From IMG/VR virus record IMGVR_UViG_3300010282_000326: DNA of 64,000 nucleotides. One strand, written 5' to 3'. The notes beneath the pieces were generated by a model that worked only from the letters and a program-made list of their open reading frames with translations, did not search any database and was not told the DNA's origin. The stretch's first letter is position 1. Every line of letters begins with the position of its first letter. Shown one piece after another: positions 16,972 through 60,782 of the stretch. The position numbers and the translations under genes were made by a program. Source of the stretch: an uncultured virus (IMG/VR IMGVR_UViG_3300010282_000326). Taxonomy: Duplodnaviria; Heunggongvirae; Uroviricota; Caudoviricetes.

Positions 16972-17928
16972 ATGACAAAGAAAGACAAATTAATTTTAAC
17001 ACTTGGTATTATGTTAGTTGTAGGTGCTTTAATCATATTCGGTTTCGATAGGTTTTTTGATTATAGTCGAGCCAAAAAACAGCGTGAGATAGCTGAAAAC
17101 AGTATTATAGTGCATACAAATACAGATGCTGAGTACTTAAAAACATTAGAATTATCGACTCAAACTGATGCTGAGGCTTGGAATGAACCTATAGATGTAT
17201 TAGGTAAAGACCAAGATACGGCTTCAGTAACAACATATAAAAATGTACTTGAGATACCACAGTACGATATATTAGTTTATATTTACCCAGATGTATCTGA
17301 TTATAGTTTAGCTATGGGGGTAGGTCATTATCCAGAAACTAAACTTGCTGGTGAGAAGGGTAACTGTGCTGTTGCAGGTCATTCAAGTAATCAATATAGG
17401 GCTATCTTAAATAAGTGTCAATATATGAATATATTAGATACATTTAATGTATATGATGCCAATGGAAATAAGCATCAGTATTATGTAACTGGTTTATATA
17501 CTGTAAATCCTTATGATATGTCTGTATTATATACAACAGATGATAGTGTAAGTCAGTTTACAATGGTTACTTGTAATAATAATGGTAATACAAGACTTAT
17601 AATTGAGGGTAAAGAGTTAAATGCATCTCAATTAGACCAGTATATAAAGAATGCTGAAACAGTAAAGAGGAATGAGTTACTTACTTTAAATGAAGAAATT
17701 GAGTCTTTTGATATTAGCAAGGTAAATAATTATTTACAAAGTCTTGGTGTTATTGTTAATGATACTTTCTATTTTGATTATTTTACTTTATTTGATGATA
17801 GAGTTCCTACAATGGATACTTTATTTAGACCTATATTAGCTGATAGGTTGGATAGAAAAGAGCATATTTATTCATCAGATTTTCAAATGGATATGGGCTT
17901 CAGATTCAATAAGGAGGATGAAAAATGA
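16972..17928 (+). CDS. Sortase
   Basis: N-terminal TM; GVGHYP...GNCAVAGH (His), TMVTC (Cys), TRLII (Arg). Confidence 0.9.
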   Translation: MTKKDKLILTLGIMLVVGALIIFGFDRFFDYSRAKKQREIAENSIIVHTNTDAEYLKTLELSTQTDAEAWNEPIDVLGKDQDTASVTTYKNVLEIPQYDILVYIYPDVSDYSLAMGVGHYPETKLAGEKGNCAVAGHSSNQYRAILNKCQYMNILDTFNVYDANGNKHQYYVTGLYTVNPYDMSVLYTTDDSVSQFTMVTCNNNGNTRLIIEGKELNASQLDQYIKNAETVKRNELLTLNEEIESFDISKVNNYLQSLGVIVNDTFYFDYFTLFDDRVPTMDTLFRPILADRLDRKEHIYSSDFQMDMGFRFNKEDEK

Positions 17929-19461: not shown

Positions 19462-19734
19462 ATGATTGTTGAAAAAGTTATAGTTATGGTGAGACTTGCT
19501 GATGGTGATGATATAAAAATCTCCGTAACAGCTAAGGATAAACCTTTAAGAAATAGTGATTTTGATAAACTTATCAACGATGCTAATCGTAAGTTTGGGG
19601 AAATTGATTCTGCTGATGTATTATATTACACAATCAGAACAACTCTAAATGGTAAGAAAGATAATTATAAATTTAAAGATTGGACACAAACATACTCTTG
19701 TTTGGAAGAAATATTTGGAGGTTTAAATGACTAA
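19462..19734 (+). CDS. Hypothetical protein
   Basis: SD aaggag; 90 aa. Confidence 0.7.
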   Translation: MIVEKVIVMVRLADGDDIKISVTAKDKPLRNSDFDKLINDANRKFGEIDSADVLYYTIRTTLNGKKDNYKFKDWTQTYSCLEEIFGGLND

Positions 19735-20311
19735 GTTTAAGAAGATATTAAAAGATTATTGGATTTTTATAGTAGGCTTTATTTGTATTGTATTATTTGC
19801 AATTTTTCTCACTACAGGTGAGGTTAATGGTACTTCAATGTTACCAAATTATCAAAATGGAGATTATATCTTAATAAGGGATACTAAGAATGTATCACGA
19901 GGAGATGTTGTTGTAATTTGGAGTGAGAAATTGCAAGAGTATTTATGCAAGCGAATAATAGGGGTAGAAGGTGATACTGTAAAAGTTCAAAATGGGGTAG
20001 TTAATGTTAATTCTGAGGACTTAGTTGAAAACTATGTAAATGAAGAACAGTGGAATGGTATTAATGTAGATACAGTAGTACCAGATAATTATGTTTTTGT
20101 TATGGGAGATAACAGAAATCATAGTACAGATTCAAGAGAAATCGGTGCTATACCGACAGATGATATAGTTGGGGTTGTTTTTCTTGATATTACAAAATAT
20201 ACGCATTTAACAAAAAATGATTTTAATCATATAATTGTTTTTTGTTGGGCAGTTGTTCTTTTATTTATCATTTTGTTCCGAAATTCAGATAGAAACGAGC
20301 AAAAGTCTTGA
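19727..20311 (+). CDS. lepB: Signal peptidase I
   Basis: VNGTSMLP (Ser), LCKRIIG (Lys), FVMGDNRNHSTDSR. Confidence 0.93.
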   Translation: MTKFKKILKDYWIFIVGFICIVLFAIFLTTGEVNGTSMLPNYQNGDYILIRDTKNVSRGDVVVIWSEKLQEYLCKRIIGVEGDTVKVQNGVVNVNSEDLVENYVNEEQWNGINVDTVVPDNYVFVMGDNRNHSTDSREIGAIPTDDIVGVVFLDITKYTHLTKNDFNHIIVFCWAVVLLFIILFRNSDRNEQKS

Positions 20312-21078: not shown

Positions 21079-21951
21079 TTGTTACAAGAGGTAATTAAAC
21101 GAGATGGTCATAAAGTTCCATTTAACGCTTTTAACATCAGAAAGGCTATTCTAAATGCTAATGAAGAGGTTGCAGTATTAGACCAAGCTAGTGATGAAGA
21201 AATAGATATCATAGTTAAAGATATAGAAACTATGCCAGATACTTGTATCAATATAGAGGTTATTCAAAATCTTATTGAAAACAAGTTAATGGAATTTAGA
21301 CATTTCGAACTAGCTCGTAAGTATATTACTTACAGATTCATTCATGATGTTAATAGAAGTTTAACAAAGGCAGAAAAAGGTATTTTAGAGTTAATAAGGG
21401 GTAGTAATACCGAAGTTATCAATGAAAACTCTAATAAGAACGCCTTTACAAATGCCACACAGCGAGACTTGATTGCAGGTGAGGTTTCCAAGGAAATCAG
21501 TGATAAATTTATTTTACCAGAAGAACTTGTTGAAGCAGACCTTAATCAAGAACTTCATTGGCATGATAAGGACTATACAGTTCAGCCAATGATAAATTGC
21601 TGTTTAATTAATATTCAGGATATGCTGGATAATAATACAGTTTTAAATAATCTTCTTATTGAGAGTCCTCATTCATTCCGAGTTGCTTGTAATGTTATGA
21701 CTCAAATCATAGCTTCTATTGCAAGTAATCAATATGGTGGACAGTCAGTTAATGTTAAGTATCTTGGAAAATATCTTAGATTAGCTAGAGAAAAGACTAG
21801 AAAGCGTATTATTGCATCACTTGAAGAAGCAGGTGACCCATATACTGAAAATCAAGTCGAAGTTACTGTTAGAAATGAATTACAGCAGGAATTAGAGGAT
21901 GGGGTTCAAACAATACAGTACCAGATAAATACACTTCACACTACTAACGGT
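21079..21951 (+). CDS. nrdD: Anaerobic ribonucleoside-triphosphate reductase, exon 1 (ATP cone and N-terminal part)
   Basis: VIKRDGHKVPF ATP cone; NENSNK; HWHDKDY; NCCLIN; SNQYGGQS; ends QINTLHTTNG. Confidence 0.92.
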
Positions 21952-23584
21952 TTTTTAATTTAAGTTATATTTTAATAAGTTAAGATAATAATACATTTCC
22001 TAAAGGAGGTGTATTATGTATATTTATAAAATTACAAATAAAGTCAATAATAAGTGTTATATAGGTAAAACTGCTTATCCAAGAAATAGATTTTCTGCTC
22101 ATTGCAGGTCATCGTATGAAGTAGGTAGAGCTATTCATAAATATGGAAAAGAAAATTTCTCTTTTGATATTCTTTTTCAGTGTAATTGGAATGATGCTTC
22201 TTTGTTAGAGTCCTATTTAATATATAAGTTTAATTCTTTAGTGCCTAATGGGTATAATTCAATATATTCATATAGAAATATATTAAGTAGATTAAATTAT
22301 GCGAATACTTTAATAGAAGCAATAAGAATTGGCTCATATTCATTAACAAATCCTTATAAAGTTACTAAGGATTTAGATGATGAAAGACCTATAACTTGTA
22401 TTGAAGATTACACCGAATTTAATAATGCTTTAGAATGTGCTTTATTTTATGGTTTGCCTAGTTCTACTAGAGTCAAAGAAGTGTGTCGAGGCAGTAGAGC
22501 AACGGCAAAAGGTTTAACTTTTCGATACTTAGATGAAAATGGTTCTATTTTAGAGCCAAAAAATGGTGCTAAGAAGAAAAAGCGAGAAGTTTATGTTGAA
22601 GAAACTGATTTGATTTACAAAAGTGTAATGGATGCTATTCGAGATATAAACCCCCAGATGGATAAAGGGGTAGTTAATCTCAATTTGAATAGTAAATCTG
22701 AAAATGCTTATGGCTTTCATTTTCATTATGTAATAGATGATGAGATTATACCAAATACTTTTGTCAGTCCAAGGAAGACTAAAAAAGTTCTTATGGATAA
22801 CTCTATTCAGTTTGAATCTGTTGCTGAAGCAATTAGAGAATTAGGGTTACCAGATGGTGCTAGAGGAGCAATATCTCAAAATATTAGAGGGGAGAGTTCT
22901 AATGCTTATGGTCATACTTGGGCTTATATTGAAGATGATGACACAATCAGTCAAAGACAGTTTGTATCTCGTAAAATAGACCGAAGTAAAGTAAAAAGAT
23001 TTGAAATTATTTGTGATAATAAATATACATTTAAGTCATTAGCTGAAGCTTGTAGATACTTTAATTTTAATTCAAATTATGCAAAAGTAATTGCAGAGTG
23101 TTGTAAAGGTTTACGAGATGAAGCTTTCGGACATACTTGGAAATATGGCAAAGAATTGACTGGCTCCCCACAGTGGAAACATTGAAGGGGTAAGGATGTG
23201 AACTCGTACTTGCGAGGTGTGAATATAGCAGTAAGTTATATTCGCTATCGGTAACAGTGGAATAAGACTGGTTATATGATAATTATAACCCATTTACTTA
23301 TGTAAATGACCATAGACGAAGGGACTGTGTAAGAGATGCTAGAGCCAGAAATGGTTAGCTTGCTAATACCGAGCCAAGCTTAGAGGGTAACCTCTTTGAA
23401 GGTGTATCGACTAAGACATACCGACCAGAAATGGTAGATGAAGTCTAAACCTGTTTGGTGAAAGCCCAAATGGGGTAGTGCATCCTACTTATAGTTATAG
23501 ACTATAACATTGAGTGTGACAATGCCTAACGTAAAACGAGGGTAAAGAGATAGTCAGGGGCTAATGAAAGTTAGTAGGTGACTG
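21952..23584 (+). mobile_element. Group I intron in nrdD carrying a homing endonuclease
   Basis: Joining GGT(21951) to CAA(23585) restores TTNG-QSPFLTLF in frame. Exon ends in U, intron ends in G. Core elements aataccgagccaagc (~23365), gaaggtgtatcgactaa (~23398) and aagagatagtc (23545-23555; P7 gacta/tagtc). Confidence 0.9.
22016..23185 (+). CDS. Intron-encoded GIY-YIG homing endonuclease with four NUMOD1/IENR1-like repeats
   Basis: YIYKITNKVNNKCYIGKT...RFSAH...GYN; repeated F.S..EA...CRG...AYG..W.Y units. Confidence 0.9.
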   Translation: MYIYKITNKVNNKCYIGKTAYPRNRFSAHCRSSYEVGRAIHKYGKENFSFDILFQCNWNDASLLESYLIYKFNSLVPNGYNSIYSYRNILSRLNYANTLIEAIRIGSYSLTNPYKVTKDLDDERPITCIEDYTEFNNALECALFYGLPSSTRVKEVCRGSRATAKGLTFRYLDENGSILEPKNGAKKKKREVYVEETDLIYKSVMDAIRDINPQMDKGVVNLNLNSKSENAYGFHFHYVIDDEIIPNTFVSPRKTKKVLMDNSIQFESVAEAIRELGLPDGARGAISQNIRGESSNAYGHTWAYIEDDDTISQRQFVSRKIDRSKVKRFEIICDNKYTFKSLAEACRYFNFNSNYAKVIAECCKGLRDEAFGHTWKYGKELTGSPQWKH

Positions 23585-24892
23585 CAATCACCATTTTTAA
23601 CTTTATTTCTACACATAGATGAAACATACGAGTATTGTGAAGAATCTGCTATGATTATCGAAGAAATAATCAAGCAGAGGATTAAAGGTGTTAAAAATAA
23701 AGATGGAGTTTATGTAACCCCAGCATTCCCTAAGCTCGTTTATGTATTAGATGAGTGTAATGCATTAAAAGGCGGAAAATATGATTACATAACAAGAAAA
23801 TGTCTTGAGTGTAATGTTAAAAGAATGTATCCAGATTATATTTCTGCAAAGATTATGAAAGAGGTACATCAAAACAATATTTACAGTCCTATGGGTTGCA
23901 GAAGTTTCTTAGGTGAATGGAAAGTAACTAAAGATTTCCTTGAGCCTTTAGGTTTAACAGATGATATGCTCGGAAGTTATCGTTATGAAGGAAGATTCAA
24001 TCAAGGGGTAGTTAGTATAAATCTTCCTCAAATAGCTATCGAAGCTAATAAAGATATGGATACATTTTGGTCTTTACTTGATGAAAGACTTGCAAAATGT
24101 TATAAGGCTTTATTGTATAGGCATAAACTTCTTGAAGGTGTTACTTCAGATACATCTCCTATCCATTGGCAGCATGGTGGTATAGCTAGACTTAAAGTTG
24201 GTGAGAAGATTGATAAATTACTTCATAATAGCTTCTCAAGTATAAGCCTTGGTTATATCGGAGTTTATGAAATGTGTCAAGCAATGTTAGGGGTATCTCA
24301 TACAACTGATGTTGGAAAAGAGTTTGCTTTAAAGGTTATCGCAAGATTGCGTGATGCTTGTGCTACTTGGAGAGAAACAACTGGTATAGGCTTTTCATTA
24401 TATGGCACACCTGCTGAGAGTTTGTGTTATACATTCTTAAGACACGATAGAGCAAAGTATGGAGTTATACCAAATGTAACTGACCATAATTTCTACACTA
24501 ATTCATATCATGTATATGTTGGTGAGAAGATAAGTGCTTTTGATAAGTTCCAATTTGAAGCAGAGTTTCAAAAGTTATCAACTGGAGGTTGCATTTCTTA
24601 TGTAGAGCTTCCTAATATGGCTCATAACTTAGAGGCTTTAGCTGAAGTAGTTAGGTTTGGTTATGATAATATTCAGTATTTTGAATTTAATACTAAATGT
24701 GATTATTGCTATAACTGTGGCTATGATGGCGAGATAAAGTTGAATGAGAATAATCATTGGGAGTGTCCAGTTTGTCATAACACTGATATGAAACGAATGA
24801 CTGTTACAAGAAGAACTTGTGGTTATTTAGGTGTTAATGATTGGAACGAAGGCAAGCGAAGTGAAATGGGAATTCGAGTTCTACACTTATGA
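23585..24892 (+). CDS. nrdD: Anaerobic ribonucleoside-triphosphate reductase, exon 2
   Basis: FPKLVY, PMGCRSF, GRFNQGVVSINL, YGTPAES, CYNC...CPVC, RRTCGYL glycyl-radical motif. Confidence 0.95.
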   Translation, partial: QSPFLTLFLHIDETYEYCEESAMIIEEIIKQRIKGVKNKDGVYVTPAFPKLVYVLDECNALKGGKYDYITRKCLECNVKRMYPDYISAKIMKEVHQNNIYSPMGCRSFLGEWKVTKDFLEPLGLTDDMLGSYRYEGRFNQGVVSINLPQIAIEANKDMDTFWSLLDERLAKCYKALLYRHKLLEGVTSDTSPIHWQHGGIARLKVGEKIDKLLHNSFSSISLGYIGVYEMCQAMLGVSHTTDVGKEFALKVIARLRDACATWRETTGIGFSLYGTPAESLCYTFLRHDRAKYGVIPNVTDHNFYTNSYHVYVGEKISAFDKFQFEAEFQKLSTGGCISYVELPNMAHNLEALAEVVRFGYDNIQYFEFNTKCDYCYNCGYDGEIKLNENNHWECPVCHNTDMKRMTVTRRTCGYLGVNDWNEGKRSEMGIRVLHL

Positions 24893-26137: not shown

Positions 26138-28501
26138 ATGGTAGATTATAATGATATTAAAAACTATAAACTTTGTACACGAAAACTTTATAGCTCGTTT
26201 ATTTGTATGCCAGAACTTGGTACTTTTGTTATAAATAAGGTTAAAAATAATGATATTTATAACACTTTTAAGTTTGAGTTCTTAAGTCCGTCTTTATATG
26301 CTCGAATGACTCCTAAGTGGAAACGAGTATTTGATTCTTATGTTGCAGTTGGTAGAATACAAGTAGTAACAAGAGCACAAAGATTTATAAAAGCAGGGGT
26401 ACTTGGAGAACTTGATGTTATATCCTTTGATAAACTACAAGAGAGTTATATGTTTGCAACTGGAGACCCTATAAGTCTTTTAACACTTACAAAGCGTATA
26501 ACAAATAATCTTATGTCTTGGCAGAAGATTACTGCAATAGCAACAGATTATCAAGAATATGCTTGTTTTGTTCCTTTTGATAATAAGTTCATGTTTAATA
26601 ATATAGACTCTGTAAATATATTTGAAATACCTCATGGTTATGGTGATTTTATTGTCTATACTTTAGTTAATAATCAGTTATGTGATGGTAGAGTTGTTAA
26701 TGGTCAAATCTTTACTTTAGAATATAATAATATTAACTGGAAAGGTCAAGTTGAAACAGGTCTTAAAGAAGTTACAATAAATAATCTGCCTAATATAGTA
26801 AATCAAGTCTTTGATTATAGTGAAAGTATTGAAACAAAGTATTCTTTTGCAGAGTTATTAAAGTTAGATTTAGAAGCTAAAAAACCATCAGCTTATTTAT
26901 ATGATATACAGATTATGAATGTTTTAGATAAAGATGTATTACAAATTGATACACAATATTGTGCAGTGAAATTAAGAACTAAGTTTTATTTAGTTTATAC
27001 AAGGCTTACAGATGTTGTTTCAATTAAGAAAATGTGTATTATTGAAAAATATATAATAAAAGCATCAAGTTATGATTCTTTTATTACTGAAGTTCAAGGA
27101 ATACTTGGGGTACTCAAAGCAGGAATAGAGAGTTCTTTCTTAACAAGTATTGGAAGTATTGAAGAATTGTCTTGTATAAATAATTATACAAAAAATGGTT
27201 TTCAAGAAGTAAATAAGGCTTTATATACTGGGCATCGTTTGGATTTTAAGGATTATCTTTTAGCTTCAACAGTATATACTTATCTTAAGAGATGCAGTTT
27301 GAAAGATAATGTTTGGTTGTATAGGGGTTTGAAATCAAAGAGAAGAGTATATGAAGGTATGTTATTAAAGTCATATAACTTTCTTTCTACTTCCATAAAT
27401 TTTAAGTCAGTTCTTGGTTTTGGTACTGGTATTATAATGCGATTTAAAGAGACAAAGGGTTTAGAAGGTTTATACATAAATACAATCTCCAATTCAAGAA
27501 ATTCAGAATATGAAGTTCTTATAAATGCAGGTAATGATATAGTATTTGAAAAGAAAGTTGGGGTAATTAATGATGTAGAGATTTGGGATTGCAAGATAGT
27601 TCCAGATAAATCTTTCCGAATGTTGAAAAATCAGAATAAAGTTATTGATACTACTTTAAATATATTAAATCATCATCCTTTGAGAAATTACTTTTATATT
27701 ACAAAATGTAATGAGGATTATCGTAGTTGTATCATTGAATTTTCATCTTTATATAATAATACTAATATTTCCTTGACTTTTAGTGAGAAGAATGTTATAA
27801 TATTATATAGTCAGGAAAAGAAGAAGTATAAAAAGACTGTTCGATTATCTAAAGATGATTTATATTTAAGAATTATAAAGATATTTGATAAATGCCTTGA
27901 ATTTTATCAATCTGATTTTTCTATTATAACAGGTAGTGCCTTATATAGAATAGGTTGTGATGTAATTTTCAATATATCGTCTAAATTCGTATATGAAGGT
28001 TTTATTCTTTTAGGGCAGAGGATTTTTACAAAGAAATATTCAGATGATTATGAGTTTAAGGCAAGTATAACCTTAAATGGTGATTCAGATGATAGTATAA
28101 GTATTTTGCATAAGTTCTATTGTACCACTTTAGATAAATGTAGTTTATCTTTAAGTGGTAAGTCTGATTCAGCAGAAAAATCAACATCATTAAGTGGTAG
28201 TTTAAGGAAAGTTGACTCTTTGGTTGAAAAGGTCTTTGAATATTGTTTACAAAACTTTAATCTTAACTATTCAAGACGAGTTGATAAGGTCATAACTAAA
28301 ATTGCAAATTATTTTGGTGATGATATTACAGTAGAGAAGGCAAGAGATTGTATTGTTTACAAGTTAGGTGAAACAAAGTACATATATGTTAAAATGGATG
28401 GTACAAATGTAAATTATTTAACAGATTTAGGTCAGGTTGAGGTTGATTATTTCGATAATCTGAATGTTGTAGCATCAAAAGTATTCAAGATAGTGGTGTA
28501 G
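26138..28501 (+). CDS. Multidomain protein with a central ADP-ribosyltransferase domain (VIP2/C2/Alt-like, R-S-E class)
   Basis: INNYT...VNKAL; LYRG (27317-27328); FLSTS (~27385); SEYEVLI (EYE at 27506-27514). Confidence 0.85.
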   Translation: MVDYNDIKNYKLCTRKLYSSFICMPELGTFVINKVKNNDIYNTFKFEFLSPSLYARMTPKWKRVFDSYVAVGRIQVVTRAQRFIKAGVLGELDVISFDKLQESYMFATGDPISLLTLTKRITNNLMSWQKITAIATDYQEYACFVPFDNKFMFNNIDSVNIFEIPHGYGDFIVYTLVNNQLCDGRVVNGQIFTLEYNNINWKGQVETGLKEVTINNLPNIVNQVFDYSESIETKYSFAELLKLDLEAKKPSAYLYDIQIMNVLDKDVLQIDTQYCAVKLRTKFYLVYTRLTDVVSIKKMCIIEKYIIKASSYDSFITEVQGILGVLKAGIESSFLTSIGSIEELSCINNYTKNGFQEVNKALYTGHRLDFKDYLLASTVYTYLKRCSLKDNVWLYRGLKSKRRVYEGMLLKSYNFLSTSINFKSVLGFGTGIIMRFKETKGLEGLYINTISNSRNSEYEVLINAGNDIVFEKKVGVINDVEIWDCKIVPDKSFRMLKNQNKVIDTTLNILNHHPLRNYFYITKCNEDYRSCIIEFSSLYNNTNISLTFSEKNVIILYSQEKKKYKKTVRLSKDDLYLRIIKIFDKCLEFYQSDFSIITGSALYRIGCDVIFNISSKFVYEGFILLGQRIFTKKYSDDYEFKASITLNGDSDDSISILHKFYCTTLDKCSLSLSGKSDSAEKSTSLSGSLRKVDSLVEKVFEYCLQNFNLNYSRRVDKVITKIANYFGDDITVEKARDCIVYKLGETKYIYVKMDGTNVNYLTDLGQVEVDYFDNLNVVASKVFKIVV

Positions 28502-29268
28502 TGCGTATGAATTTAATACAAGTTTTTCAAGATACAAGAGATAAGTCACATAATGAATATCGAGAAGAGACTATGTGTGCTATAGCTGATGCATTTGTTG
28601 TTAAGCATCCAGAGAAGATAAAGTTAGACAATAAAGTTAATAAATATATGGATATCAGTTTCATAAATGATGGTACTATAGAAACGGCTCAGAAGTTTAA
28701 GTACGATAAAATGGCAGTACTTAATTTTGCTGATGCTTTAGTCCCAGGTGGTTTAGTTTTATCGGGAGAAAGAACTCAGGAAGAAAATATTTGTAGATGT
28801 AGTAATCTTTATGAGACTTTGGTTGTAAATAAGAAAGATTATTATGATTATAATATTTCTTTTGGAAATTCGATTTATTCAAATAGAATTATTTATTCAT
28901 TTGGGATAAAAGTATTTAAGGATGGTAAAACTTATGATGATATAAGACCTTTTTATACAGATGTTATAACTTGCCCAGCACCATCTTGTAGTGTAGATAG
29001 TAAAATTATTTTTGATAGAATAGATTGTATTGTTAGAGTTGCAGCAAGAATGCATATCAATACACTGATTTTAGGTGCATGGGGTTGTGGTGCTTTTGGT
29101 CAAGACCCAGTAGTTGTGTCTAAAGGTTTTGCTAAAGCTCTTGTTAAGTATCCATTTTTTAAGAAGGTAGTTTTTGCTATAAGACCTACTGAAGGACATA
29201 GCGATAATACAACTTTTGATATATTTAAGAAAAGTTTTTGGGAGGAATACAATAATGACAAATCGTGA
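28501..29268 (+). CDS. Bacterial-type PARG macrodomain protein (TIGR02452/DUF2263-like)
   Basis: AVLNFADALVPGG...TQEENICRCSNLY; ITCPAP; LILGAWGCGAFGQDP; VVFAI. Confidence 0.9.
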   Translation: MRMNLIQVFQDTRDKSHNEYREETMCAIADAFVVKHPEKIKLDNKVNKYMDISFINDGTIETAQKFKYDKMAVLNFADALVPGGLVLSGERTQEENICRCSNLYETLVVNKKDYYDYNISFGNSIYSNRIIYSFGIKVFKDGKTYDDIRPFYTDVITCPAPSCSVDSKIIFDRIDCIVRVAARMHINTLILGAWGCGAFGQDPVVVSKGFAKALVKYPFFKKVVFAIRPTEGHSDNTTFDIFKKSFWEEYNNDKS

Positions 29269-36357: not shown

Positions 36358-36786
36358 TTGGAGGTTAGTTTTTTGAATCGAAAGTTTTGTATAGCATCTT
36401 TAATTGTAGATAGCTTTATTTTATGCTTATCAATATGTATAGGTATCGCTTCTAATATGCAAATAAAGAGTTATGATAATCCAGATTATTCTTATGCTAA
36501 AGTTTTATTTTGTTCAAAGCAAGCTAATAGAGATGGTAAATATAGTTTACAATTAGAATATCCAGATGCTGAAGGTAGTTTACATAGTGTTATTGTAAAT
36601 GGAAGTAAGAAGAAATTTGCAGAAGGCGAAGAAGTCCTCATAATTTATAATGCAGATACACCAGAGGATTTTGAATGGGGTAGTAATCTCTTTATACCTA
36701 TTTATATTCTTGGTGGACTTGGTATTGCAAGTCTGATTTGGCTGATGGTTATTCTAATAGTTAAACTTAAGAGTTCAGCTCGTTAA
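36358..36786 (+). CDS. DUF3592-like membrane protein
   Basis: TM, beta-rich domain ending GEEVLIIYNADTPE, then TM. Confidence 0.6.
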   Translation: MEVSFLNRKFCIASLIVDSFILCLSICIGIASNMQIKSYDNPDYSYAKVLFCSKQANRDGKYSLQLEYPDAEGSLHSVIVNGSKKKFAEGEEVLIIYNADTPEDFEWGSNLFIPIYILGGLGIASLIWLMVILIVKLKSSAR

Positions 36787-36825
36787 AATAACTTTTAGAA
36801 ATTTTAACTTTTTCATCATATTGTG

Positions 36826-36854
36826 TTGACAAGGCTTAAGTCTTGTGGTATAAT
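36826..36854 (+). promoter_or_regulatory. Consensus sigma-A/70 promoter for the RNA operon
   Basis: TTGACA-17 bp-TATAAT with extended -10 TG. Confidence 0.9.
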
Positions 36855-36873
36855 ATGTCTTGTAAATGAATAA

Positions 36874-36944
36874 CGCAGGTTAGAGGAGAGGAACCTTGTA
36901 AGCGTCATAGGCTTAAGACGGCAGTTCGAGTCTGCCACCTGCAA
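36874..36944 (+). tRNA. tRNA-Met(CAT), initiator-like, CCA not encoded
   Basis: Acceptor cgcaggt/acctgca (C1:A72 mismatch); D arm gagg/cctt; anticodon arm taagc-gtCATag-gctta; T arm ggcag-ttcgagt-ctgcc. Confidence 0.85.
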
Positions 36945-36978
36945 TTTTTGAAACTTTATTCCTTAAAAGTTTTTTCAT

Positions 36979-37470
36979 GTGGCAAACGGTTGAGTGCGAT
37001 GTTAATCGTACTCAGCCACCTCCTTTGTACCCACCCGAGATTCGAGTTCGGTAAGATTCCGAAGAGACTTTAGTCTTAATGCTTACAGTGGGTTTTATAA
37101 GATTTAGTTTGTCCCTCACAATTTACGAGGCAGATGACCTCTATTGAAGTTGTGAAAATAAACATAAATATAACTTAGCTGATATGATAAAGTATAGTTA
37201 AATCAGCAGTTAACTGGCTTATAGTTGGTGAAGATTATTTCACAACCATCTCATACATTCTTGAGAAAGGGTGCAGCTTACACGAGAAATTCGTTAAGTT
37301 TATAATCGGATGCAAGGTAGACCTTACAAGGCTTGTCTAGGTAATACTAGTCGATATCCTAGTGTAACTATTGACAGTTACAATTTTGTTACTGACAGTT
37401 GGAAAGACAACTATTGGAAGAACAAATGTCCAGTAATCAACACATGGGTAGTTGGCTGACTTTAAAGCTA
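36979..37470 (+). ncRNA. Unassigned structured RNA(s) between the two tRNAs
   Basis: No ORF, raised GC, a continuous run of hairpins and long-range pairings. Confidence 0.55.
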
Positions 37471-37474
37471 TTTT

Positions 37475-37546
37475 TCCTACATAGTTTAATGGTAGAGCAC
37501 TTGACTGTTAATCAAGGAGTTATTGGTTCGAGTCCAATTGTAGGAG
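37475..37546 (+). tRNA. tRNA-Asn(GTT), CCA not encoded
   Basis: tcctaca/tgtagga acceptor, G73; cttga-ctGTTaa-tcaag; attgg-ttcgagt-ccaat. Confidence 0.95.
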
Positions 37547-37645
37547 TTGCCGATTTGTCAGTTTGAACGAGTCGGTTGAAGCCCATGCTCTGAGGGAAAT
37601 GGGGTAGCACATAGGGATATGTGTTAGATGGGCATTATGTATTTA

Positions 37646-37825
37646 GGAAACCTGCAGAGTAGTGATTAAGGTGCAGGACAAGGCGGTTTGATGAGGGTTG
37701 ATTCCGCTCAGGCAGTTGGAAGACTGTAATAATGTTTTTTGGGAGTCTGCAAGTTGGTAATTAGGTGCAGAACAAGGCGGTTGAAATGTGGGTTGTTTCC
37801 GCTCAGGTAGTTGGAAGGCTACAAT
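37646..37825 (+). ncRNA. Tandem pair of ~85-nt structured RNA motifs (period ~95 nt)
   Basis: Two imperfect copies of ctgca..tgcag / acaag / gcgg..ccgc / tcag / GGAA-capped stem, with a compensatory change. Confidence 0.65.
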
Positions 37826-38070
37826 GTTACTTATTCTTGCAAGAATAAAGGGTTTTTACTTGGCAGTTGGATAAAGGGAATTTCGCACCATTTGTATGGT
37901 TAGACTTGGAAGGTTGGGTTCTGAGCTGAAGAAATCGCCCTCGTCACATCGGGAAGGTCGATGAGGTAAAACTGTCAGTTCCAATGCTTACATTGGAGGT
38001 TCGGATTCCTTAAGTCCAGATAATAAAGGGCTGGCTAGGATGAGATGGATAGCCTAAGCCAGCCCAACAC

Positions 38071-38421
38071 GGGGTATTCAGGTTTCGACAGGGATTTGAA
38101 GGCTTATTCTACACTTAGGTTGGTAACCTTTAATAACCAAATAAAATAAACGCTAACGATAGAGTAGCACTTCAGGCAGCAGCGTAGTCTGCTAGTCAGA
38201 GCCAAAAAGGTAGTCGGGTGACTAGACTATTTGAGGTTCAAAAAAAGTCACTTACTGTTGAATTCCAGATTCTTTAAGAAAGCGGAGATGTATGCAAAAT
38301 CGGTGCAAGGTCATACGAGTGAGTGCATAGGAAGAAGTTAGACACGAAGACTGAGAGATGAGTGTAGTAAGGGATATGCTAGTAGGATTTTTGGACAGGG
38401 GTTCGATTCCCCTATACTCCA
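38071..38421 (+). ncRNA. ssrA: tmRNA
   Basis: 5' ggggtat..tttcgac and 3' gacaggggttcgattcccctatactcca with G3.U70; tag frame 38152-38187 encodes ANDRVALQAAA*. Confidence 0.95.
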
Positions 38422-38452
38422 TTTGATATTGTCATATTTGTTTTCCTTTCTT

Positions 38453-38485
38453 GGAGTTTGGATAGAAATATTCAAGCTCCTTTTT
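38453..38485 (+). terminator. Terminator closing the RNA operon
   Basis: ggagtttggata-gaaa-tattcaagctccttttt. Confidence 0.8.
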
Positions 38486-38513
38486 CAGTTCAGCTATAAA
38501 CTAAAAACTATTC

Positions 38514-38579
38514 AAGGAGGGTATTATGGCTATTAAAACTGATGGTAAGGAGGGTGCTATGGCTGTTAAAACTGATGGT
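38514..38579 (+). repeat. 33-bp tandem duplication containing an RBS and start codon
   Basis: aaggagggtattATGgctattaaaactgatggt / aaggagggtgctATGgctgttaaaactgatggt. Confidence 0.85.
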
Positions 38580-40106
38580 TCAATGTCATCTAAGATTATC
38601 TATAAAGATTATAGAAAAGCTTATGATTCATTGAGCAAAATGAAGAAGGAAGATTTATTTAGAATGAAGTTAAGGGGCTACGAATTCGATGCACTGCCTT
38701 GGTTATTGAGTTCCATAGGTTTTATGAATTCAGATTCAAAAGCAGGCATCTTTTCAGTCATTTGTGATAAGCACAAGAACTGTAAACCCTTTGTCAAGCT
38801 ACCAGTAAAAGAAAATAAGTTATGGCAGGAAATGCGTATAACTCTACCTGCATATTCAGATTACGGTTTAAGAACATTAAGTATTTATGCCTATGAGTTA
38901 GACCCTAACTGGGTTACAAAGATTATTTTTAACTTTTATATGCAATATATTTCTGATTGCATTTATATTGGTTATAAGATTCCATATCTAACTTTTGCAG
39001 ACTCTGATATCTGTAATACTCAGGCTTTTGGTATTGTTTTAGGTACAGCTTGGGTATTAAAGTTAGTTCCTCAAATCAGAGTAATGAAGGGGGTAGATAT
39101 TAAGAAGTTAAAATTAACTGAAACTCTTGAAATGTTATGCCCAGAATCGAGTATACATTTTAAGTATTTAAGTGGTCAGATTTCTCTTAAAGAAGCACAG
39201 GATGAATATATTAAAGTCAAGGACGGTAGTTGTGTATTAGAAAGAGAACTTATGAGTCTTATAACAGAAGGTGCATATAAAGGTGAAAGTCTTACAGATA
39301 AGGAACACGCTTCTTGTGTAGATTTATATGATATGTTTAAGAGATATGATGATGTTCATATGTTTAATCTAAATATTGCTTATTCTTTCTATTTTGATGG
39401 TAAGTTTGACTTCTTAGTTAATGAGATAGCGGAGTTAAAAGTAAAGCATGATTTAGATGCTAAGGCTATGAAGTCATACGAAGATACTATTAGACGAGTA
39501 AAGGAAAATGTCACCAAACTTGAACATATTGTTCAGGAAAGAGAAGCAAGTATTAAGTCCTTAAATGCTGAAAAGCATAATTATAAATCTGATGAAGATT
39601 TGCTTTCAGAAATTGAAACACTCAAAGAAGAGTTGAGAAAAGAAAAAGAGCGTAGTGCATTATATAATAATGAAAGTTTGGAATTAAAGAGAGTTATTTC
39701 TGGTCAAAAGAAGGAGATAAAGAAACTTCGGTCAAGTCTTGATGCTTTACCAGAGGCTGATAAGGAAATTGTAGAGGAATTTCTTGAGGAAGAAGAAATC
39801 GGCTTTGAAGATGCTCTCGACTTTGTAAAAGATAAATTTATTATTGTTGCAGGCGGATTACATCAGGAAAATATGTTTAATAGGCTTGATGAGTATGGCT
39901 TGAATGTAAAAATAGTACAGAATTCTGTTAAGTTACATGGTAAATGTGATGTAGGTGTAATTTTAACAACTACAGCAACGCATCATTTATCAAATGTATT
40001 AGAAAAATTTGTCAGGGGTACTGACACACCTATTGTATATTACAATGGTACAAATGTTGAAAACTTAGTTATCGAAATTTATAAGGAGTTGATTGAAAAT
40101 GTTTGA
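38526..40106 (+). CDS. Coiled-coil protein with C-terminal DUF2325-like domain
   Basis: Long coiled coil, then IIVAGG...CDVGVILTTTATHHL. Confidence 0.7.
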   Translation: MAIKTDGKEGAMAVKTDGSMSSKIIYKDYRKAYDSLSKMKKEDLFRMKLRGYEFDALPWLLSSIGFMNSDSKAGIFSVICDKHKNCKPFVKLPVKENKLWQEMRITLPAYSDYGLRTLSIYAYELDPNWVTKIIFNFYMQYISDCIYIGYKIPYLTFADSDICNTQAFGIVLGTAWVLKLVPQIRVMKGVDIKKLKLTETLEMLCPESSIHFKYLSGQISLKEAQDEYIKVKDGSCVLERELMSLITEGAYKGESLTDKEHASCVDLYDMFKRYDDVHMFNLNIAYSFYFDGKFDFLVNEIAELKVKHDLDAKAMKSYEDTIRRVKENVTKLEHIVQEREASIKSLNAEKHNYKSDEDLLSEIETLKEELRKEKERSALYNNESLELKRVISGQKKEIKKLRSSLDALPEADKEIVEEFLEEEEIGFEDALDFVKDKFIIVAGGLHQENMFNRLDEYGLNVKIVQNSVKLHGKCDVGVILTTTATHHLSNVLEKFVRGTDTPIVYYNGTNVENLVIEIYKELIENV

Positions 40107-42959: not shown

Positions 42960-43288
42960 TTATGGCAAATTTGCTATACGGCTACAGTTTTGATGATAGC
43001 ACTAATAAGATTGAAATTAAGGCTTTCATAAGTAAAGAAGTTAATAGGGGCTATCAGGAAAAGTTCTTTTTGAAGGAAGATAGGTATCACTCAAGAAGTG
43101 TTCCAAAGGAGTACTTAAACAGAGTGTACAGGGGTACTTATTATTCAAGTAGTAATTTGGCTTTAGAAGAGGCTAAAGAAGCACTTATTAAGTATTATAG
43201 TGAAAAATTAAATAGTTATTTATCTCAGGCTGAAAAGCACGAGATATGTTGGGTAAACTGGAGGTTGAAGAGTGACAATCGAAAATAA
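42956..43288 (+). CDS. Hypothetical protein, weakly similar to the 42241 product
   Basis: Both have KY/GYS...E at the start and YYS....EA..AL..Y...KL..Y. Confidence 0.6.
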   Translation: MIMANLLYGYSFDDSTNKIEIKAFISKEVNRGYQEKFFLKEDRYHSRSVPKEYLNRVYRGTYYSSSNLALEEAKEALIKYYSEKLNSYLSQAEKHEICWVNWRLKSDNRK

Positions 43289-43715
43289 GCGAGCAAGTTT
43301 TAATTATTTTATAGAAGATACTCTTGAGTGCGGAATCAGTCTTAGGGGTAATGAAGTCAAGAGTATTAGAAGTGGAATGTGTAATATAAAGGAGTCTTGG
43401 ATAACTATTCAAGATGGTAATCTTGTTATGAGAGGTTGCCATATAACTAAATGGGAGACTTCAAATATTTTTGATATCGATGAAAGAAGAGAAAGACAGC
43501 TTTTAGCACATAAGAAAGAAATTGTAAAGTTACAAAACTTTGTGCAGGAGAGTGGTCATGCTTTAATACCATTAAAGTTATATTTTGTAAATGGTAGAGT
43601 TAAAGTTCTTGTTGGTTTATGTGTTGGAAAGCACAATTATGATAAGCGTGAGAGTATCAAGAAGAAAGATGCAAAGCGTGATATTGAACGAGCATTAAAA
43701 GAAAGGAATAAATAA
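43272..43715 (+). CDS. smpB: SsrA-binding protein SmpB
   Basis: ENKRASFNYFIEDTLECGISLRGNEVKSIR...RQLLAHKKEI...GKHNYDKRESIK. Confidence 0.96.
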   Translation: MTIENKRASFNYFIEDTLECGISLRGNEVKSIRSGMCNIKESWITIQDGNLVMRGCHITKWETSNIFDIDERRERQLLAHKKEIVKLQNFVQESGHALIPLKLYFVNGRVKVLVGLCVGKHNYDKRESIKKKDAKRDIERALKERNK

Positions 43716-53449: not shown

Positions 53450-54529
53450 TTGAATTATGAACTTTTAAAGATTCTTATTCAGTTAAATTTTCTTCCTATC
53501 TGTATAAGTATCTTTTTAATATATTTTTTTAATATCAATAAAAGCTATGATAGTAAATCAGTACAAAGATTTCAGGTTATAGTTGTTCAACTTTTGGTAT
53601 TACTTTGTATAGATAGTTTAGATTATATATGCATTGAATATAATGATACAACTATCTGGCATACACTTGTAGTTGTTATAGGCTATGATTTAAGATTATT
53701 TATTATGGCAGGTGTTACAGATATAGCAATAGAGCGTCTTGAGTATAGCAAGAGTAATTATGTTTACATCTTAGCTGGCTTGAACGCTTTAATTTTATTA
53801 TTAACTTTCTTTACAGACCTTGTTTTTGAATTTAATGCAAATGGAGAAGTTGAAAATAATCTCTTGGGGTACACCCCACATATAATAGAATTGGGGTATA
53901 GTATTATTTTAATAGTTTTAGTTATAAAACTTTTTTATATAAGACATAAAAATGAAGCTGAACTTATATTATTTTGTTTAATATTAACTTTATTAGCGAC
54001 TTATCTTGAGCATTGTTATGATTTACGAGGTTTGTTAACTAGTGTTATTGCTTTTACTATAATATTTTATTATTTATATATTCATATTGAGCATTTTAAA
54101 TTTGATAATCTTACTAGAGCTTTAAATAGGGACTCTTTTTATGCAGATGTTAAATCTTTAGGAAAAGAAAAAATAACTGCTATAATGAGTATTGATTTAG
54201 ATGGCTTAAAAGAAACAAATGATACCAGAGGGCATCAAGCAGGTGATGAGTTATTATTAAATACTACTAGAGTTATACAAAAGTCTTTATATACTGGTTG
54301 TTATCTGTATAGAGTTGGTGGGGATGAATTTACAATACTTTGCGTTAATTATGGAGAAGTAGAGGTAAAAAATCTAGCAACTAAGATATTAAATAATATA
54401 GAAAAAGCAGGCTTAAGCGTATCTTTGGGGTATGCAATGTGGTTTGGAAATAAAGATTTTGAAGAAGTATATCATGAAGCAGATATTAAAATGTATGAGA
54501 TGAAGGAAATAAATCATGCAAATAGATAA
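53450..54529 (+). CDS. Membrane-bound diguanylate cyclase
   Basis: About 7 TM helices, then DNLTRALNR, IDLDGLKETNDTRGHQAGDELL, YRVGGDEF, ADIKMYEMK. Confidence 0.93.
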   Translation: MNYELLKILIQLNFLPICISIFLIYFFNINKSYDSKSVQRFQVIVVQLLVLLCIDSLDYICIEYNDTTIWHTLVVVIGYDLRLFIMAGVTDIAIERLEYSKSNYVYILAGLNALILLLTFFTDLVFEFNANGEVENNLLGYTPHIIELGYSIILIVLVIKLFYIRHKNEAELILFCLILTLLATYLEHCYDLRGLLTSVIAFTIIFYYLYIHIEHFKFDNLTRALNRDSFYADVKSLGKEKITAIMSIDLDGLKETNDTRGHQAGDELLLNTTRVIQKSLYTGCYLYRVGGDEFTILCVNYGEVEVKNLATKILNNIEKAGLSVSLGYAMWFGNKDFEEVYHEADIKMYEMKEINHANR

Positions 54530-59516: not shown

Positions 59517-60782
59517 TTGCCTATGTGTGTAATGTGTGGAAAATCATACGATAAGGAATATCCTTTATTTTTAAGTAATGGTATTTCCTTATCTTTTTGT
59601 CAGAATTGCCTTGAGTCTATGCTTTCGGAACTAAAGGCTCAAAATGCAAAACAGACAAAGCAATCTTCACCTCAAAGTGAGGTTGCTTATATGCTTAGTA
59701 GGATGTTTGGTATTCCTATTGTTGACGATGATTTAGATGATGATTCTATCATTTCAGATGAAGAAAAGTCTGACGAAATAAAAAATCTAACTCCAAGAGA
59801 ACTTATGACTGAACTTAACAGATATGTTATCGGTCAGGATAAGGCTAAAAAGACTCTTGCAGTTGCCATTTATAATCATTGTAAGCGAATGGAAAGTGGT
59901 AGAACAGATATTGAGAAAAGTAATATAATGCTTATAGGTTCAACAGGGGTAGGTAAGACTGAACTTGCTAGAACTATAGCCAAGATTATGAATGTTCCAT
60001 TTGCTATCGCAGATTCAACTGGTATTACTGAAGCTGGTTATGTTGGTGGCAATGTTGAAGATATTGTAATGAACCTTGTAAATGCTTGTAATGGAGATAT
60101 TGAAAGAGCAGAAAGGGGTATCATTTACATAGATGAGATTGATAAACTTGCTTCTTACAATGACGGGCATAAAGATGTAAGTGGTGAGGGTGTTCAGCAA
60201 GCCTTACTTAAAATTATTGAGGGTACTAAGTTAAATCTTTCAGGTGGGAATCCTCGTAAAGCACCTAAAGTTATAGATACAAGTAATATCTTATTTATTT
60301 GTGGTGGTGCTTTTGCAGGTCTAACAATGAAAGAAAAATCAACGAAACATGCTTTAGGTTTCAATAGTGTCGATGAAAAGGCTGAAGATGATAAAATTGA
60401 TACAAAAGCTCTTTCAAAGTTTGGTATGATACCAGAATTGCTTGGTAGATTTCCAATTAAAGTAAGGTTAGATGACCTTGAAATAAATGATTTGAAGCGT
60501 ATTTTGGTTGAACCAGAAAACTCTATCGTAAAGCAGTATAAAAACTTACTTAATATGGATGGGGTAGAGCTTGCCTTTGGTGATTCAGCCTTACAATATA
60601 TTGCTGAGAAAGCAAAAGAAAGCGGTAATGGTGCAAGAGGGCTTCGGTCAGTTATTGAAGATAGTATGACGGACTTGATGTTCGATTTACCAGATATGAA
60701 AGATGTTAAAAAGGTTACTATAGTTAAGCAAAAAGATGGCTTAGGTTACAGAGTAACAAGAACTAAGGAAGTTAATGCTTAA
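59517..60782 (+). CDS. clpX: ATP-dependent Clp protease ATPase subunit ClpX
   Basis: N-terminal CxxC..CxxC; YVIGQDKAK, KSNIMLIGSTGVGKT, EAGYVG, IDEIDK, DVSGEGVQQALLK, LGF loop, GARGLR. Confidence 0.95.
   Translation: MPMCVMCGKSYDKEYPLFLSNGISLSFCQNCLESMLSELKAQNAKQTKQSSPQSEVAYMLSRMFGIPIVDDDLDDDSIISDEEKSDEIKNLTPRELMTELNRYVIGQDKAKKTLAVAIYNHCKRMESGRTDIEKSNIMLIGSTGVGKTELARTIAKIMNVPFAIADSTGITEAGYVGGNVEDIVMNLVNACNGDIERAERGIIYIDEIDKLASYNDGHKDVSGEGVQQALLKIIEGTKLNLSGGNPRKAPKVIDTSNILFICGGAFAGLTMKEKSTKHALGFNSVDEKAEDDKIDTKALSKFGMIPELLGRFPIKVRLDDLEINDLKRILVEPENSIVKQYKNLLNMDGVELAFGDSALQYIAEKAKESGNGARGLRSVIEDSMTDLMFDLPDMKDVKKVTIVKQKDGLGYRVTRTKEVNA

Follow-up and report, generated by a model that had tools for sequence, protein, structure and literature searches.

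A tandem pair of three-hairpin RNA units in a putative 0.5-kb non-coding RNA between the tRNA-Asn and tmRNA genes of an uncultured phage

The closest described relatives in kind of the element reported here are the ROOL and GOLLD RNAs, which the available portions of two papers (PMC12286853, PMC5737381) describe as RNAs of several hundred nucleotides (nt), encoded by phages or prophages, often near transfer RNA (tRNA) genes, with many hairpins and of unknown function. According to the same portions, ROOL was first found in the cow rumen and has an average length of 581 nt, and GOLLD has a 3' region that is more conserved than its 5' region. The present element lies in a 64,000-nt stretch of DNA from an uncultured virus of the Caudoviricetes (IMG/VR record IMGVR_UViG_3300010282_000326), the whole of which is referred to below as the window, and it takes the form of two tandem copies of an RNA unit in a 523-nt gap between the genes for tRNA-Asn and for transfer-messenger RNA (tmRNA). 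As with ROOL (RF03087), the window is phage-like, the tRNA-Asn gene ends 14 nt before the 5' end of the RNA that carries the units, and a rumen habitat is suggested. With regard to the GOLLD (RF01998) pattern of a variable 5' and a conserved 3' region, strain-level variants here show a trend in that direction, at a divergence of only a few per cent within one lineage. Unlike ROOL and GOLLD, the present RNA has an internal tandem duplication, abuts a tmRNA gene and is known from non-significant energy folds, with no multistem junction or pseudoknot in evidence, and neither of the two covariance models matches it at an expectation value (E) of 10 or below. Its context places the RNA among the large, structured RNAs that phage tRNA islands encode; by comparison with their models, it falls outside both ROOL and GOLLD.

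The architecture of the unit is that of three hairpins in series, 77 nt in all, without an enclosing helix. Each copy, when folded alone, gives the same three hairpins, which are those drawn in a preliminary description of the sequence, and all of the strings quoted there are present at the places given. The first hairpin (P1) has six base pairs (bp) and a loop of 14-15 nt, the second (P2) has five, GGCGG/CCGCU, and a loop of 17-18 nt, and the third (P3) has six under a GGAA tetraloop. In both copies, P1 and P2 are joined by ACAA, and P2 and P3 by CAG. The copies are direct repeats with a spacing of 94-95 nt (repeat search, families D1, D2 and D4), and an alignment of 84 columns shows 17 substitutions between them and two insertions or deletions (indels) of one base each. 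These differences are unevenly spread: around P2 and the junctions, a block of 20 columns contains one difference and a block of 28 columns contains two, and loop 1 contains five substitutions and one indel. Within the stems, the C37713-G37726 pair in P3 of unit 1 has become U37808-A37821 in unit 2, a compensatory change to which the preliminary description had already drawn attention, and a second one, which it had missed, stands at the base of P1 (C37651-G37677 to U37746-A37771). Two further changes in P3 are one-sided and keep the pairing. In other words, all 34 cells (17 pairs in each of two copies) are paired, and none of the 17 substitutions disrupts a pair. Since the G-U pairs in P2 and P3 would be impossible on the minus strand, the element is taken to act on the + strand, for which the folding energies of the two units are -23.1 and -19.3 kcal/mol, as against -14.7 and -11.7 kcal/mol on the minus strand. 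Moreover, the listing of open reading frames (ORFs) contains none of at least 40 amino acids (aa) over the units, and the 94-95-nt period is not divisible by three, from which it follows that the units are non-coding.

How often such a pattern would arise by chance was estimated by placing the 17 inter-copy substitutions, 13 of which are transitions, at random on 82 aligned columns in 200,000 trials. No pair is disrupted in 1.2% of the trials (p = 0.012), and the absence of disruption together with at least two compensatory pairs is obtained in 0.15% of them, the typical random outcome being three or four disrupted pairs. In control structures, in which the 3' partners were slid by 1-3 columns, 23.5-55.9% of cells are paired. 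A covariance model (R1) was also built from the two copies, as the preliminary description had proposed, and when run over the 64 kb of the window with filters off it retrieves just these two, at 106.6 and 106.5 bits, with the next best score at 14.4 bits.

Natural variants provide a second set of substitutions. Parts of the locus are present in 20 listed sequencing runs from 12 studies, and the labelled runs are bovine or sheep gut metagenomes, save one that is labelled just 'gut metagenome'. Three RNA-library runs (X13, X15 and X17) and one DNA run (X6) were aligned to 36800-38600 at a likeness of at least 80%, and their contigs show ten substitution sites and three indels over 37651-37822. 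Loop 1 of unit 1 carries four of the substitutions and two insertions, loop 2 of the same unit carries three substitutions, and the linker between the units has one substitution and one deletion, such that all three indels are within loop 1 or the linker. Unit 2 is identical across all four runs apart from G37814A, by which its GGAA loop becomes GAAA and the GNRA form is retained. The sole change at a paired position is A37723G, which converts a U-A pair to U-G, the other nine sites being unpaired; ten random substitutions leave all 34 pairs intact 3.3% of the time (p = 0.033). Together, 27 substitutions (17 between the copies and 10 in the population) without one disrupted pair argue for selection on the fold. 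This amounts to moderate evidence, from few events among closely related sequences, that the hairpins are under selection, and it supports the proposal in the preliminary description of a structured + strand RNA element whose pairing is kept through sequence change. Three additions to the fold were considered and rejected: a closing, cloverleaf-like stem (37633-38/37729-34), where the variants at 37638 and 37639 are uncompensated; an inner stem that energy folding places in loop 2, which T37689G and A37701T disrupt; and a hammerhead-like UGAUGAG in loop 2, for which no ribozyme model matches at E ≤ 10.

No known family accounts for the units. The covariance models of Rfam 15 were run over the whole window at the gathering score, where they report just the tmRNA and one tRNA, and over 36900-38600 and 37548-38075 at E ≤ 10, where no family covers the units or the gap, the Glycine, ROOL, GOLLD, ribozyme and 6S models included. 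There is no match from the tRNA clan over 37561-37970, and ARAGORN finds just tRNA-Met, tRNA-Asn and the tmRNA. Membership of a known Rfam family was one of the two results that the preliminary description had named as speaking decisively against a new class, and at E ≤ 10 there is no such match. A description of the element was found neither in Rfam 15 nor in the literature searched, the literature searches being of a kind that could not target the motif itself.

The pair of units had been presented as a free-standing tandem element. It appears instead to be the best-kept middle part of an RNA of about 0.5 kb, in which decayed copies of the unit lie on both sides of the intact pair (alignment; repeat D8). 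Three studies contribute RNA-library contigs to the gap from 37561 onwards, and two of these contigs, X13 record 6 (492 nt, 37561-38050) and X17 record 20 (37561-37978), begin exactly at 37561; the other, X15 record 13, covers 37672-37969. In X17 record 20 the 23 letters in front of 37561 are sequencing adapter, and an adapter directly before this position means that many fragments ended there. The orientation of the adapter fits a + sense RNA with its 5' end at 37561, provided that the library is dUTP-stranded. A DNA contig (X6 record 29) continues across the same position. As the promoter scan reveals no promoter-like site ahead of 37561, this end is read as a processing site, 14 nt behind tRNA-Asn. 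At the 3' side the three contigs stop at different places, and the size of the RNA would be about 490-510 nt.

The wider, putative RNA operon is of ca 1.6 kb and consists, in order, of a consensus promoter, tRNA-Met, a spacer RNA, tRNA-Asn, the ~0.5-kb RNA, tmRNA and a terminator (Table 1). A 1.45-kb stretch without protein genes holds this island, the flanking ORFs ending at 36786 and beginning at 38526; indeed, as the preliminary description stated, no protein gene lies downstream of the copies, and it is the tmRNA gene that comes next. The promoter is a consensus match only, 20 nt before tRNA-Met. RNA contigs leave the protein-coding flanks (36800-37043 and 38447-38600) uncovered, both of which the DNA run covers, but a gap in contig cover does not count as evidence. 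The spacer between tRNA-Met and tRNA-Asn is itself assembled in all three RNA libraries over 37098-37404 (X15, 37098-37285; X17, 37128-37318; X13, 37138-37404), matches no Rfam family at its threshold and is possibly another stable RNA of the same operon.

The internal anatomy of the ~0.5-kb RNA is uneven. In the 5' domain, variant A37628G leaves U37586 paired, as U-G, and the very start of the RNA resembles, in 14 of 16 bases, the J1/2-P2 segment of a unit (repeat D8). RNA run X15 and DNA run X6 reveal a sister lineage in which 37587-37671, a stretch bounded by the 5' strand of the first helix and by the 3' strand of P1 in unit 1, is replaced by 78 unalignable letters. Three GNRA-capped hairpins occur within 210 nt (GGGA at 37614, GGAA at 37718 and GGAA at 37813). 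Beyond unit 2, the hairpin at 37831-37858 looks like a weak terminator or a dimerisation site; the terminator scan makes no call there, and contigs of all three RNA runs continue through it. The decayed third copy that follows also contains a 5-bp hairpin (37887-91/37896-900), with respect to which C37886T is outside and G37894A in the loop. Given the decaying copies at its edges, the 5' two-thirds of the RNA therefore looks like an array of ~95-nt modules that arose by tandem duplication.

The 3' domain is the least variable part of the RNA, the three RNA contigs having no substitution downstream of 37894 as far as they extend; in X13 record 6, the 156 nt of 37895-38050 have none and the 334 nt of 37561-37894 have 18. 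This domain folds better than its shuffled counterparts (z = -2.33 for 37930-38070), above all in its last hairpin (z = -4.36), within which a candidate 11-nt GNRA receptor was rejected on inspection, being an ordinary helix with a bulged A. Just before the domain, 37920-37930 (UCUGAGCUGAA) is complementary, with two mismatches, to UUCCGCUCAGG, which ends P2 in both units, and the minimum-energy and centroid folds form this as a long-range helix in competition with P2 of unit 1. By our own arithmetic, chance would give about 0.06 such sites in 510 nt, and no variant bears on the helix. A separate observation concerns 37044-37101, upstream in the island, which is weakly matched by the RAGATH-36 model. 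This match has a score of 28.6 bits, where the gathering score is 70, and E = 0.002, and two large parts of the model are deleted in it. A AATGCTTACA.TGG element of this site is repeated at 37983-37996 in the 3' domain (repeat D11, 93%), where it adjoins a similar TTCGG..ATTCC element (region 37983-38017). No mention of RAGATH-36 was found in the literature searched.

Table 1. Coordinates of the tandem units, of the RNA that contains them and of the surrounding RNA operon
Feature	Position	Strand	Basis and details
Unit 1	37651-37727	+	Quoted strings in sequence; single-copy fold; all pairs script-checked
Unit 1, P1	37651-56/37672-77		15-nt loop; J1/2 ACAA
Unit 1, P2	37682-86/37704-08		17-nt loop; J2/3 CAG
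Unit 1, P3	37712-17/37722-27		GGAA loop
Unit 2	37746-37822	+	Quoted strings in sequence; single-copy fold; all pairs script-checked
Unit 2, P1	37746-51/37766-71		
Unit 2, P2	37776-80/37799-803		
Unit 2, P3	37807-12/37817-22		GGAA loop; GAAA in one RNA contig
Non-coding RNA, ~0.5 kb	37561 to about 38050-38070	+	RNA-library contigs; cover to 38050, tmRNA from 38071
5' domain	37581-37633	+	Helix GCCCAU/AUGGGC around 9-bp hairpin 37605-37626, GGGA tetraloop; folds
Palindrome	37831-37858	+	Perfect 18-nt palindrome at 37831-37848; 7 A-U-rich pairs, loop UGCA; then GGG, five T
Decayed third copy	37841-37935	+	Alignment to L1-J1/2-P2 part; P2 pairing lost
3' domain, four hairpins	37939-38065	+	37939-45/37960-66, 37979-86/37991-98, 38003-07/38013-17, 38028-39/38054-65
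Sigma-70-type promoter	36826-36854	+	TTGACA, 17 nt, TG-extended TATAAT; 12/12 consensus; probable operon start
tRNA-Met (CAT)	36874-36944	+	ARAGORN
tRNA-Asn (GTT), no encoded CCA	37474-37547	+	ARAGORN; Rfam tRNA model, 68.1 bits
tmRNA, full-length, tag peptide ANDRVALQAAA	38071-38421	+	Rfam RF00023, 86.4 bits; ARAGORN
Intrinsic-terminator-like hairpin and T run	38453 to 38480-38490	+	12 pairs, tail TTTTTCAGTT; probable operon end
SmpB (tmRNA protein partner)	43272-43715	+	Pfam PF01668, E = 2.7e-53

The interpretation that we favour, tentatively and as something possible rather than probable, is that the unit serves, in repeated form, as the docking module of a phage RNA that is processed, stable and active as a multivalent decoy or scaffold. 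On this proposal the island would be made as one transcript from the promoter at 36826, from which tRNA- and tmRNA-processing enzymes would release a stable RNA of ~0.5 kb, running from 37561 to ~38070. The 5' two-thirds of this RNA would be an array of ~95-nt modules grown by tandem duplication, two of them intact and one decayed copy on each side, and the 3' third a more strongly conserved domain of four hairpins. Each intact module would be a sequence-specific docking site, in which the invariant ACAA-GGCGG...CCGCU-CAG core is displayed between two covarying hairpins, with the GNRA loop of P3 presumably bracing the fold. Copies that are otherwise about a fifth diverged share a near-identical core, whereas their P1 and P3 stems covary and their loop 1 varies freely. 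This is the pattern expected of a binding module, whether for a protein, an RNA or a ligand. By analogy, an array with decaying copies at its edges would have the look of sponge- or scaffold-type RNAs. During infection, the RNA may engage a protein or RNA partner multivalently, as a decoy or scaffold; this partner could plausibly be a component of translation or ribosome rescue, given that the RNA would be produced along with the phage tRNAs and a tmRNA, and that SmpB is encoded 5 kb away.

Two kinds of described RNA are instructive in this regard. The CsrB/RsmZ sponges have many GGA motifs, mostly in hairpin loops. Like them, the present RNA is non-coding and made of repeated short hairpin modules multiplied by duplication, and its P3 loop exposes GGA. 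Unlike them, it tolerates the natural variant GGAA to GAAA, and its repeating unit is one of 77 nt and three hairpins, not a single GGA hairpin; the Pfam scan of 47 ORFs finds no csrA gene in the window. The second kind is RNA derived from tRNA transcripts: the tRNA cluster of phage T4 yields stable RNA species. In Escherichia coli, the 3'ETS-leuZ sponge is a functional tRNA-operon spacer, according to the part of the report available (10.1101/2021.04.25.441314). The likeness lies in the release of an RNA from a tRNA-containing precursor, in its persistence and in its possible action in trans. Such RNAs are much shorter, whereas the present spacer is one of 523 nt, is internally repeated and has no base-pairing target that was found.

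A number of points weigh against the docking-module interpretation. GGA is not enriched in the island (20 occurrences against 21.3 +/- 3.3 in 2000 local shuffles), which speaks against a sponge of the CsrA type, and the window offers no antisense target beyond chance, with 21 reverse-complement 10-11-mers against ~31 expected by our own arithmetic. The agttggaa segment that the preliminary description reported at 37397 is present, and all four AGTTGGAWR sites of the window fall within 37397-37873. AGTTGG itself occurs seven times against 0.7 expected locally, or five against 0.58 once copy 2 is masked (p = 3.4e-4), but after such masking and correction for 4096 hexamers this enrichment fails, and it is left as an unexplained hint. 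With regard to the fold, the folding energies of the units are ordinary (z = -1.48 and +0.11), as is that of the whole RNA (z = -1.07, not significant); column shuffling gives 113 of 500, a control that is powerless with two sequences; and Tandem Repeats Finder returned 0 rows, reporting no array, which counts against the repeat being more than chance. The covariation rests on two paralogues and about ten polymorphisms, because the only homologues are strain-level variants, none beyond these being found in IMG/VR, JGI metagenomes, GTDB genomes or GenBank phages. Two of the four variants in copy 1 bring unit 1 closer to unit 2, and on the sequences at hand gene conversion between the copies could be the source of the identical blocks. 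Finally, the RNA evidence consists of assembled contigs, which show presence, not strand, level or ends, and DNA carry-over is possible.

The search for relatives was made with motifs, neighbouring proteins and the two-copy model. The 15-mer TGCAGRACAAGGCGG occurs at 118 or more IMG/VR loci, among which R1 at E ≤ 1 matches 0 of 100 and 2 of 18, with a maximum of 16.2 bits; the best of these loci (L109) was rejected, since a coding region ends there and a ribosome-binding site comes next. Searches with 19-mers from the motif gave one coding match in one case and none in another. A 22-base gapped pattern found three GC-rich loci in JGI metagenomes, which look coding by eye and were rejected, and an 18-base gapped pattern found 30 IMG/VR loci and at least 121 genome loci, where the highest R1 score is 19.1 bits, against 106 for the true copies; the 40 of these 151 matches that are lowest in guanine and cytosine (GC) content were inspected by eye. 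R1 gave 0 matches in 307 genomes (5 + 151 + 151) of two orders that were reached through loci in rumen metagenome-assembled genomes, a scan that shows little because it had no positive control. As to the neighbours, blastn of 37000-38530 against GenBank phages matches at tRNA-Asn only. The 526-aa protein encoded downstream has no relative in IMG/VR, GTDB contigs or GenBank phages; in a large protein collection it has one 70%-identical cluster (P0001, 512 aa), and so a more distant relative of the phage has been sequenced. SmpB has no relative in IMG/VR, and its matches in GenBank phages look unrelated to the present phage; a 1574-aa protein has no match in GenBank phages. The 3'-domain pattern AATGCTTA..GTTCGGATTCC occurs at two IMG/VR loci, L274 and L275. 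In L275 it stands within a stretch of ~500 nt (1120-1640), apparently gene-free by eye, between coding-looking sequence, and this stretch has no Rfam family at the gathering score and no likeness to the tandem units.

Of the other explanations, the one that survives best, and that we still consider rather unlikely, is that the units are architectural domains of one ornate RNA of ROOL/GOLLD type with a global, perhaps self-assembling, fold, such that the GNRA loops and junctions would make RNA-RNA contacts within or between molecules and would not bind a foreign partner. The phage and tRNA-island context is that of ROOL and GOLLD, and the length is near the ROOL average, as far as the available portions of PMC12286853 and PMC5737381 describe them; the greater conservation of the 3' part than of the 5' part is GOLLD-like on the same footing. 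The three GNRA-capped hairpins, the perfect 18-nt palindrome and the long-range helix that the energy folds form between 37920-30 and UUCCGCUCAGG would also suit such an architecture. Set against this are the failure of both models to match, a global fold which is no better than that of shuffled sequence, and the lack of any variant that tests a long-range helix. Moreover, the decaying flank copies and the free replacement of 85 nt by 78 letters in the sister lineage fit a loose, modular RNA better.

A still more doubtful explanation, in our judgement simply unlikely, is that the units are a functionless spacer of the precursor, whose hairpins just aid processing or slow the decay of the tRNA-tmRNA transcript, with the duplication a result of neutral slippage and the RNA seen in libraries a processing by-product. 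The position between tRNA-Asn and tmRNA in a single promoter-terminator unit is what would be expected of a spacer, and the genome has another local tandem duplication (33 nt at 38514-38579); the unremarkable folding energies and the absence of homologues found point the same way. What a spacer under no constraint does not readily explain is the lack of a disrupted pair among the 27 substitutions, which has a low probability in both sets, or the 156 nt of 3' domain free of substitution in X13 record 6 while the 334 nt upstream accumulated 18. The assembly of contigs of 400-490 nt in the RNA libraries of three studies also speaks against it.

Very improbable, by comparison, is a pair of riboswitch aptamers that control the hairpin and U run at 37831-37858 and hence read-through to the 3' domain and tmRNA. 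The preliminary description had likened the units to glycine riboswitch aptamers, and of its overall interpretation it is the structured RNA without an Rfam 15 match that stands and this likeness that does not. The glycine aptamer is a three-way junction closed by its own P1 helix, and the genes that the glycine riboswitch precedes, within their 5' leader, are those for glycine cleavage or transport. With that riboswitch (RF00504) the present element shares two similar modules in tandem, conserved junction nucleotides and covarying stems. It differs in being made of serial hairpins that have neither a closing P1 nor a three-way junction, in not being matched by the Glycine model, and in its place in a tRNA/tmRNA operon, outside any 5' untranslated region and with a tmRNA, not a gene of glycine metabolism, downstream; no glycine cleavage or transport gene is among the 47 ORFs of the window scanned with Pfam. 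More generally, the aptamer-like conservation, in which stems covary and the junctions and P2 are invariant, the tandem layout and the hairpin followed by five T at 8 nt after unit 2 would suit a riboswitch. On the other side, no riboswitch family matches at E ≤ 10, the hairpin has one G-C pair and its T run begins 4 nt past the stem, the terminator scan makes no call, all three RNA runs have contigs that read through, no alternative anti-terminator pairing was found by eye, and the units are without a closing helix. No riboswitch is known to control a tmRNA, and this too counts against the idea. Hardly credible, lastly, is a role for the repeats in the DNA itself, whether as iterons, as operators that a phage DNA-binding protein occupies or as origin repeats, with the hairpins incidental. 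The gene-free region does contain two direct repeats and a perfect 18-bp palindrome, but only a + strand RNA gives meaning to the compensatory and G-U-compatible changes, and the region is present in RNA libraries and lies inside a transcription unit of stable-RNA genes.

The surroundings are those of a phage-like genome. All but four of the 66 listed ORFs of at least 100 aa are on the + strand, the GC content is 27-35%, and the GC skew is strongly positive throughout the window. Pfam assigns no family to 24 of 47 scanned ORFs, and the genes that it identifies include those for ThyX, an NAD-dependent ligase, RNase H, a ParB-HNH protein, a NERD nuclease and SmpB; no capsid or terminase gene is within the window. 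We infer that the window is part of a large ('huge') phage with a host among rumen Bacillota. Huge phages that carry tmRNA and SmpB are on record, according to the available part of PMC7162821.

Several other features of the window were observed in passing. The 33-nt tandem duplication at 38514-38579 (91% identical, repeat D3) holds the ribosome-binding site and ATG of the 526-aa gene; the P0001 cluster aligns from the second methionine, M12, and the duplication has therefore added a second start and an N-terminal extension of 11 residues. The gene for NrdD, the anaerobic ribonucleotide reductase, is split, its N-terminal part being the ORF at 21079-21963 and its C-terminal part that at 23651-24892; an ORF for a GIY-YIG homing endonuclease (22016-23185) lies between them, and the window contains no group I intron at the Rfam gathering score. 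A 787-aa protein that bears an ADP-ribosyltransferase domain has as its immediate downstream neighbour a protein with a microbial-type PARG (ADP-ribose glycohydrolase) domain (26138-29268), an arrangement that looks like a writer/eraser pair. The window also encodes a sortase, a type I signal peptidase, a protein with a GGDEF diguanylate cyclase domain and a ClpX-like AAA ATPase (16972-17928, 19727-20311, 53450-54529 and 59517-60782).

Of all bacterial RNAs, the large structured ones encoded next to phage tRNA genes are some of the least understood; for those of the GOLLD/ROOL type, the available part of PMC12286853 indicates that structures are now known and functions are not. The present RNA adds a case for which assembled contigs give evidence of expression in natural rumen communities, and its internal repeat narrows the candidate functional unit to a module of 77 nt. 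The sister lineage, with one segment swapped, offers a natural comparison, and the physical link to a phage tmRNA and SmpB leads to a concrete hypothesis in translation or ribosome rescue. At its most far-reaching, the RNA could represent a new class of phage multivalent RNAs, in which tandem, aptamer-like modules would recognise a metabolite or a host factor for translation or ribosome rescue, and so tune or protect the co-transcribed tmRNA-SmpB system during the infection of rumen Bacillota, an idea that we regard as a long shot. Were the module to bind a defined partner, it would provide a handle on what such phage RNAs do; were it to be a mere spacer, it would show how much stable structure the tRNA-operon spacers of giant phages can carry.

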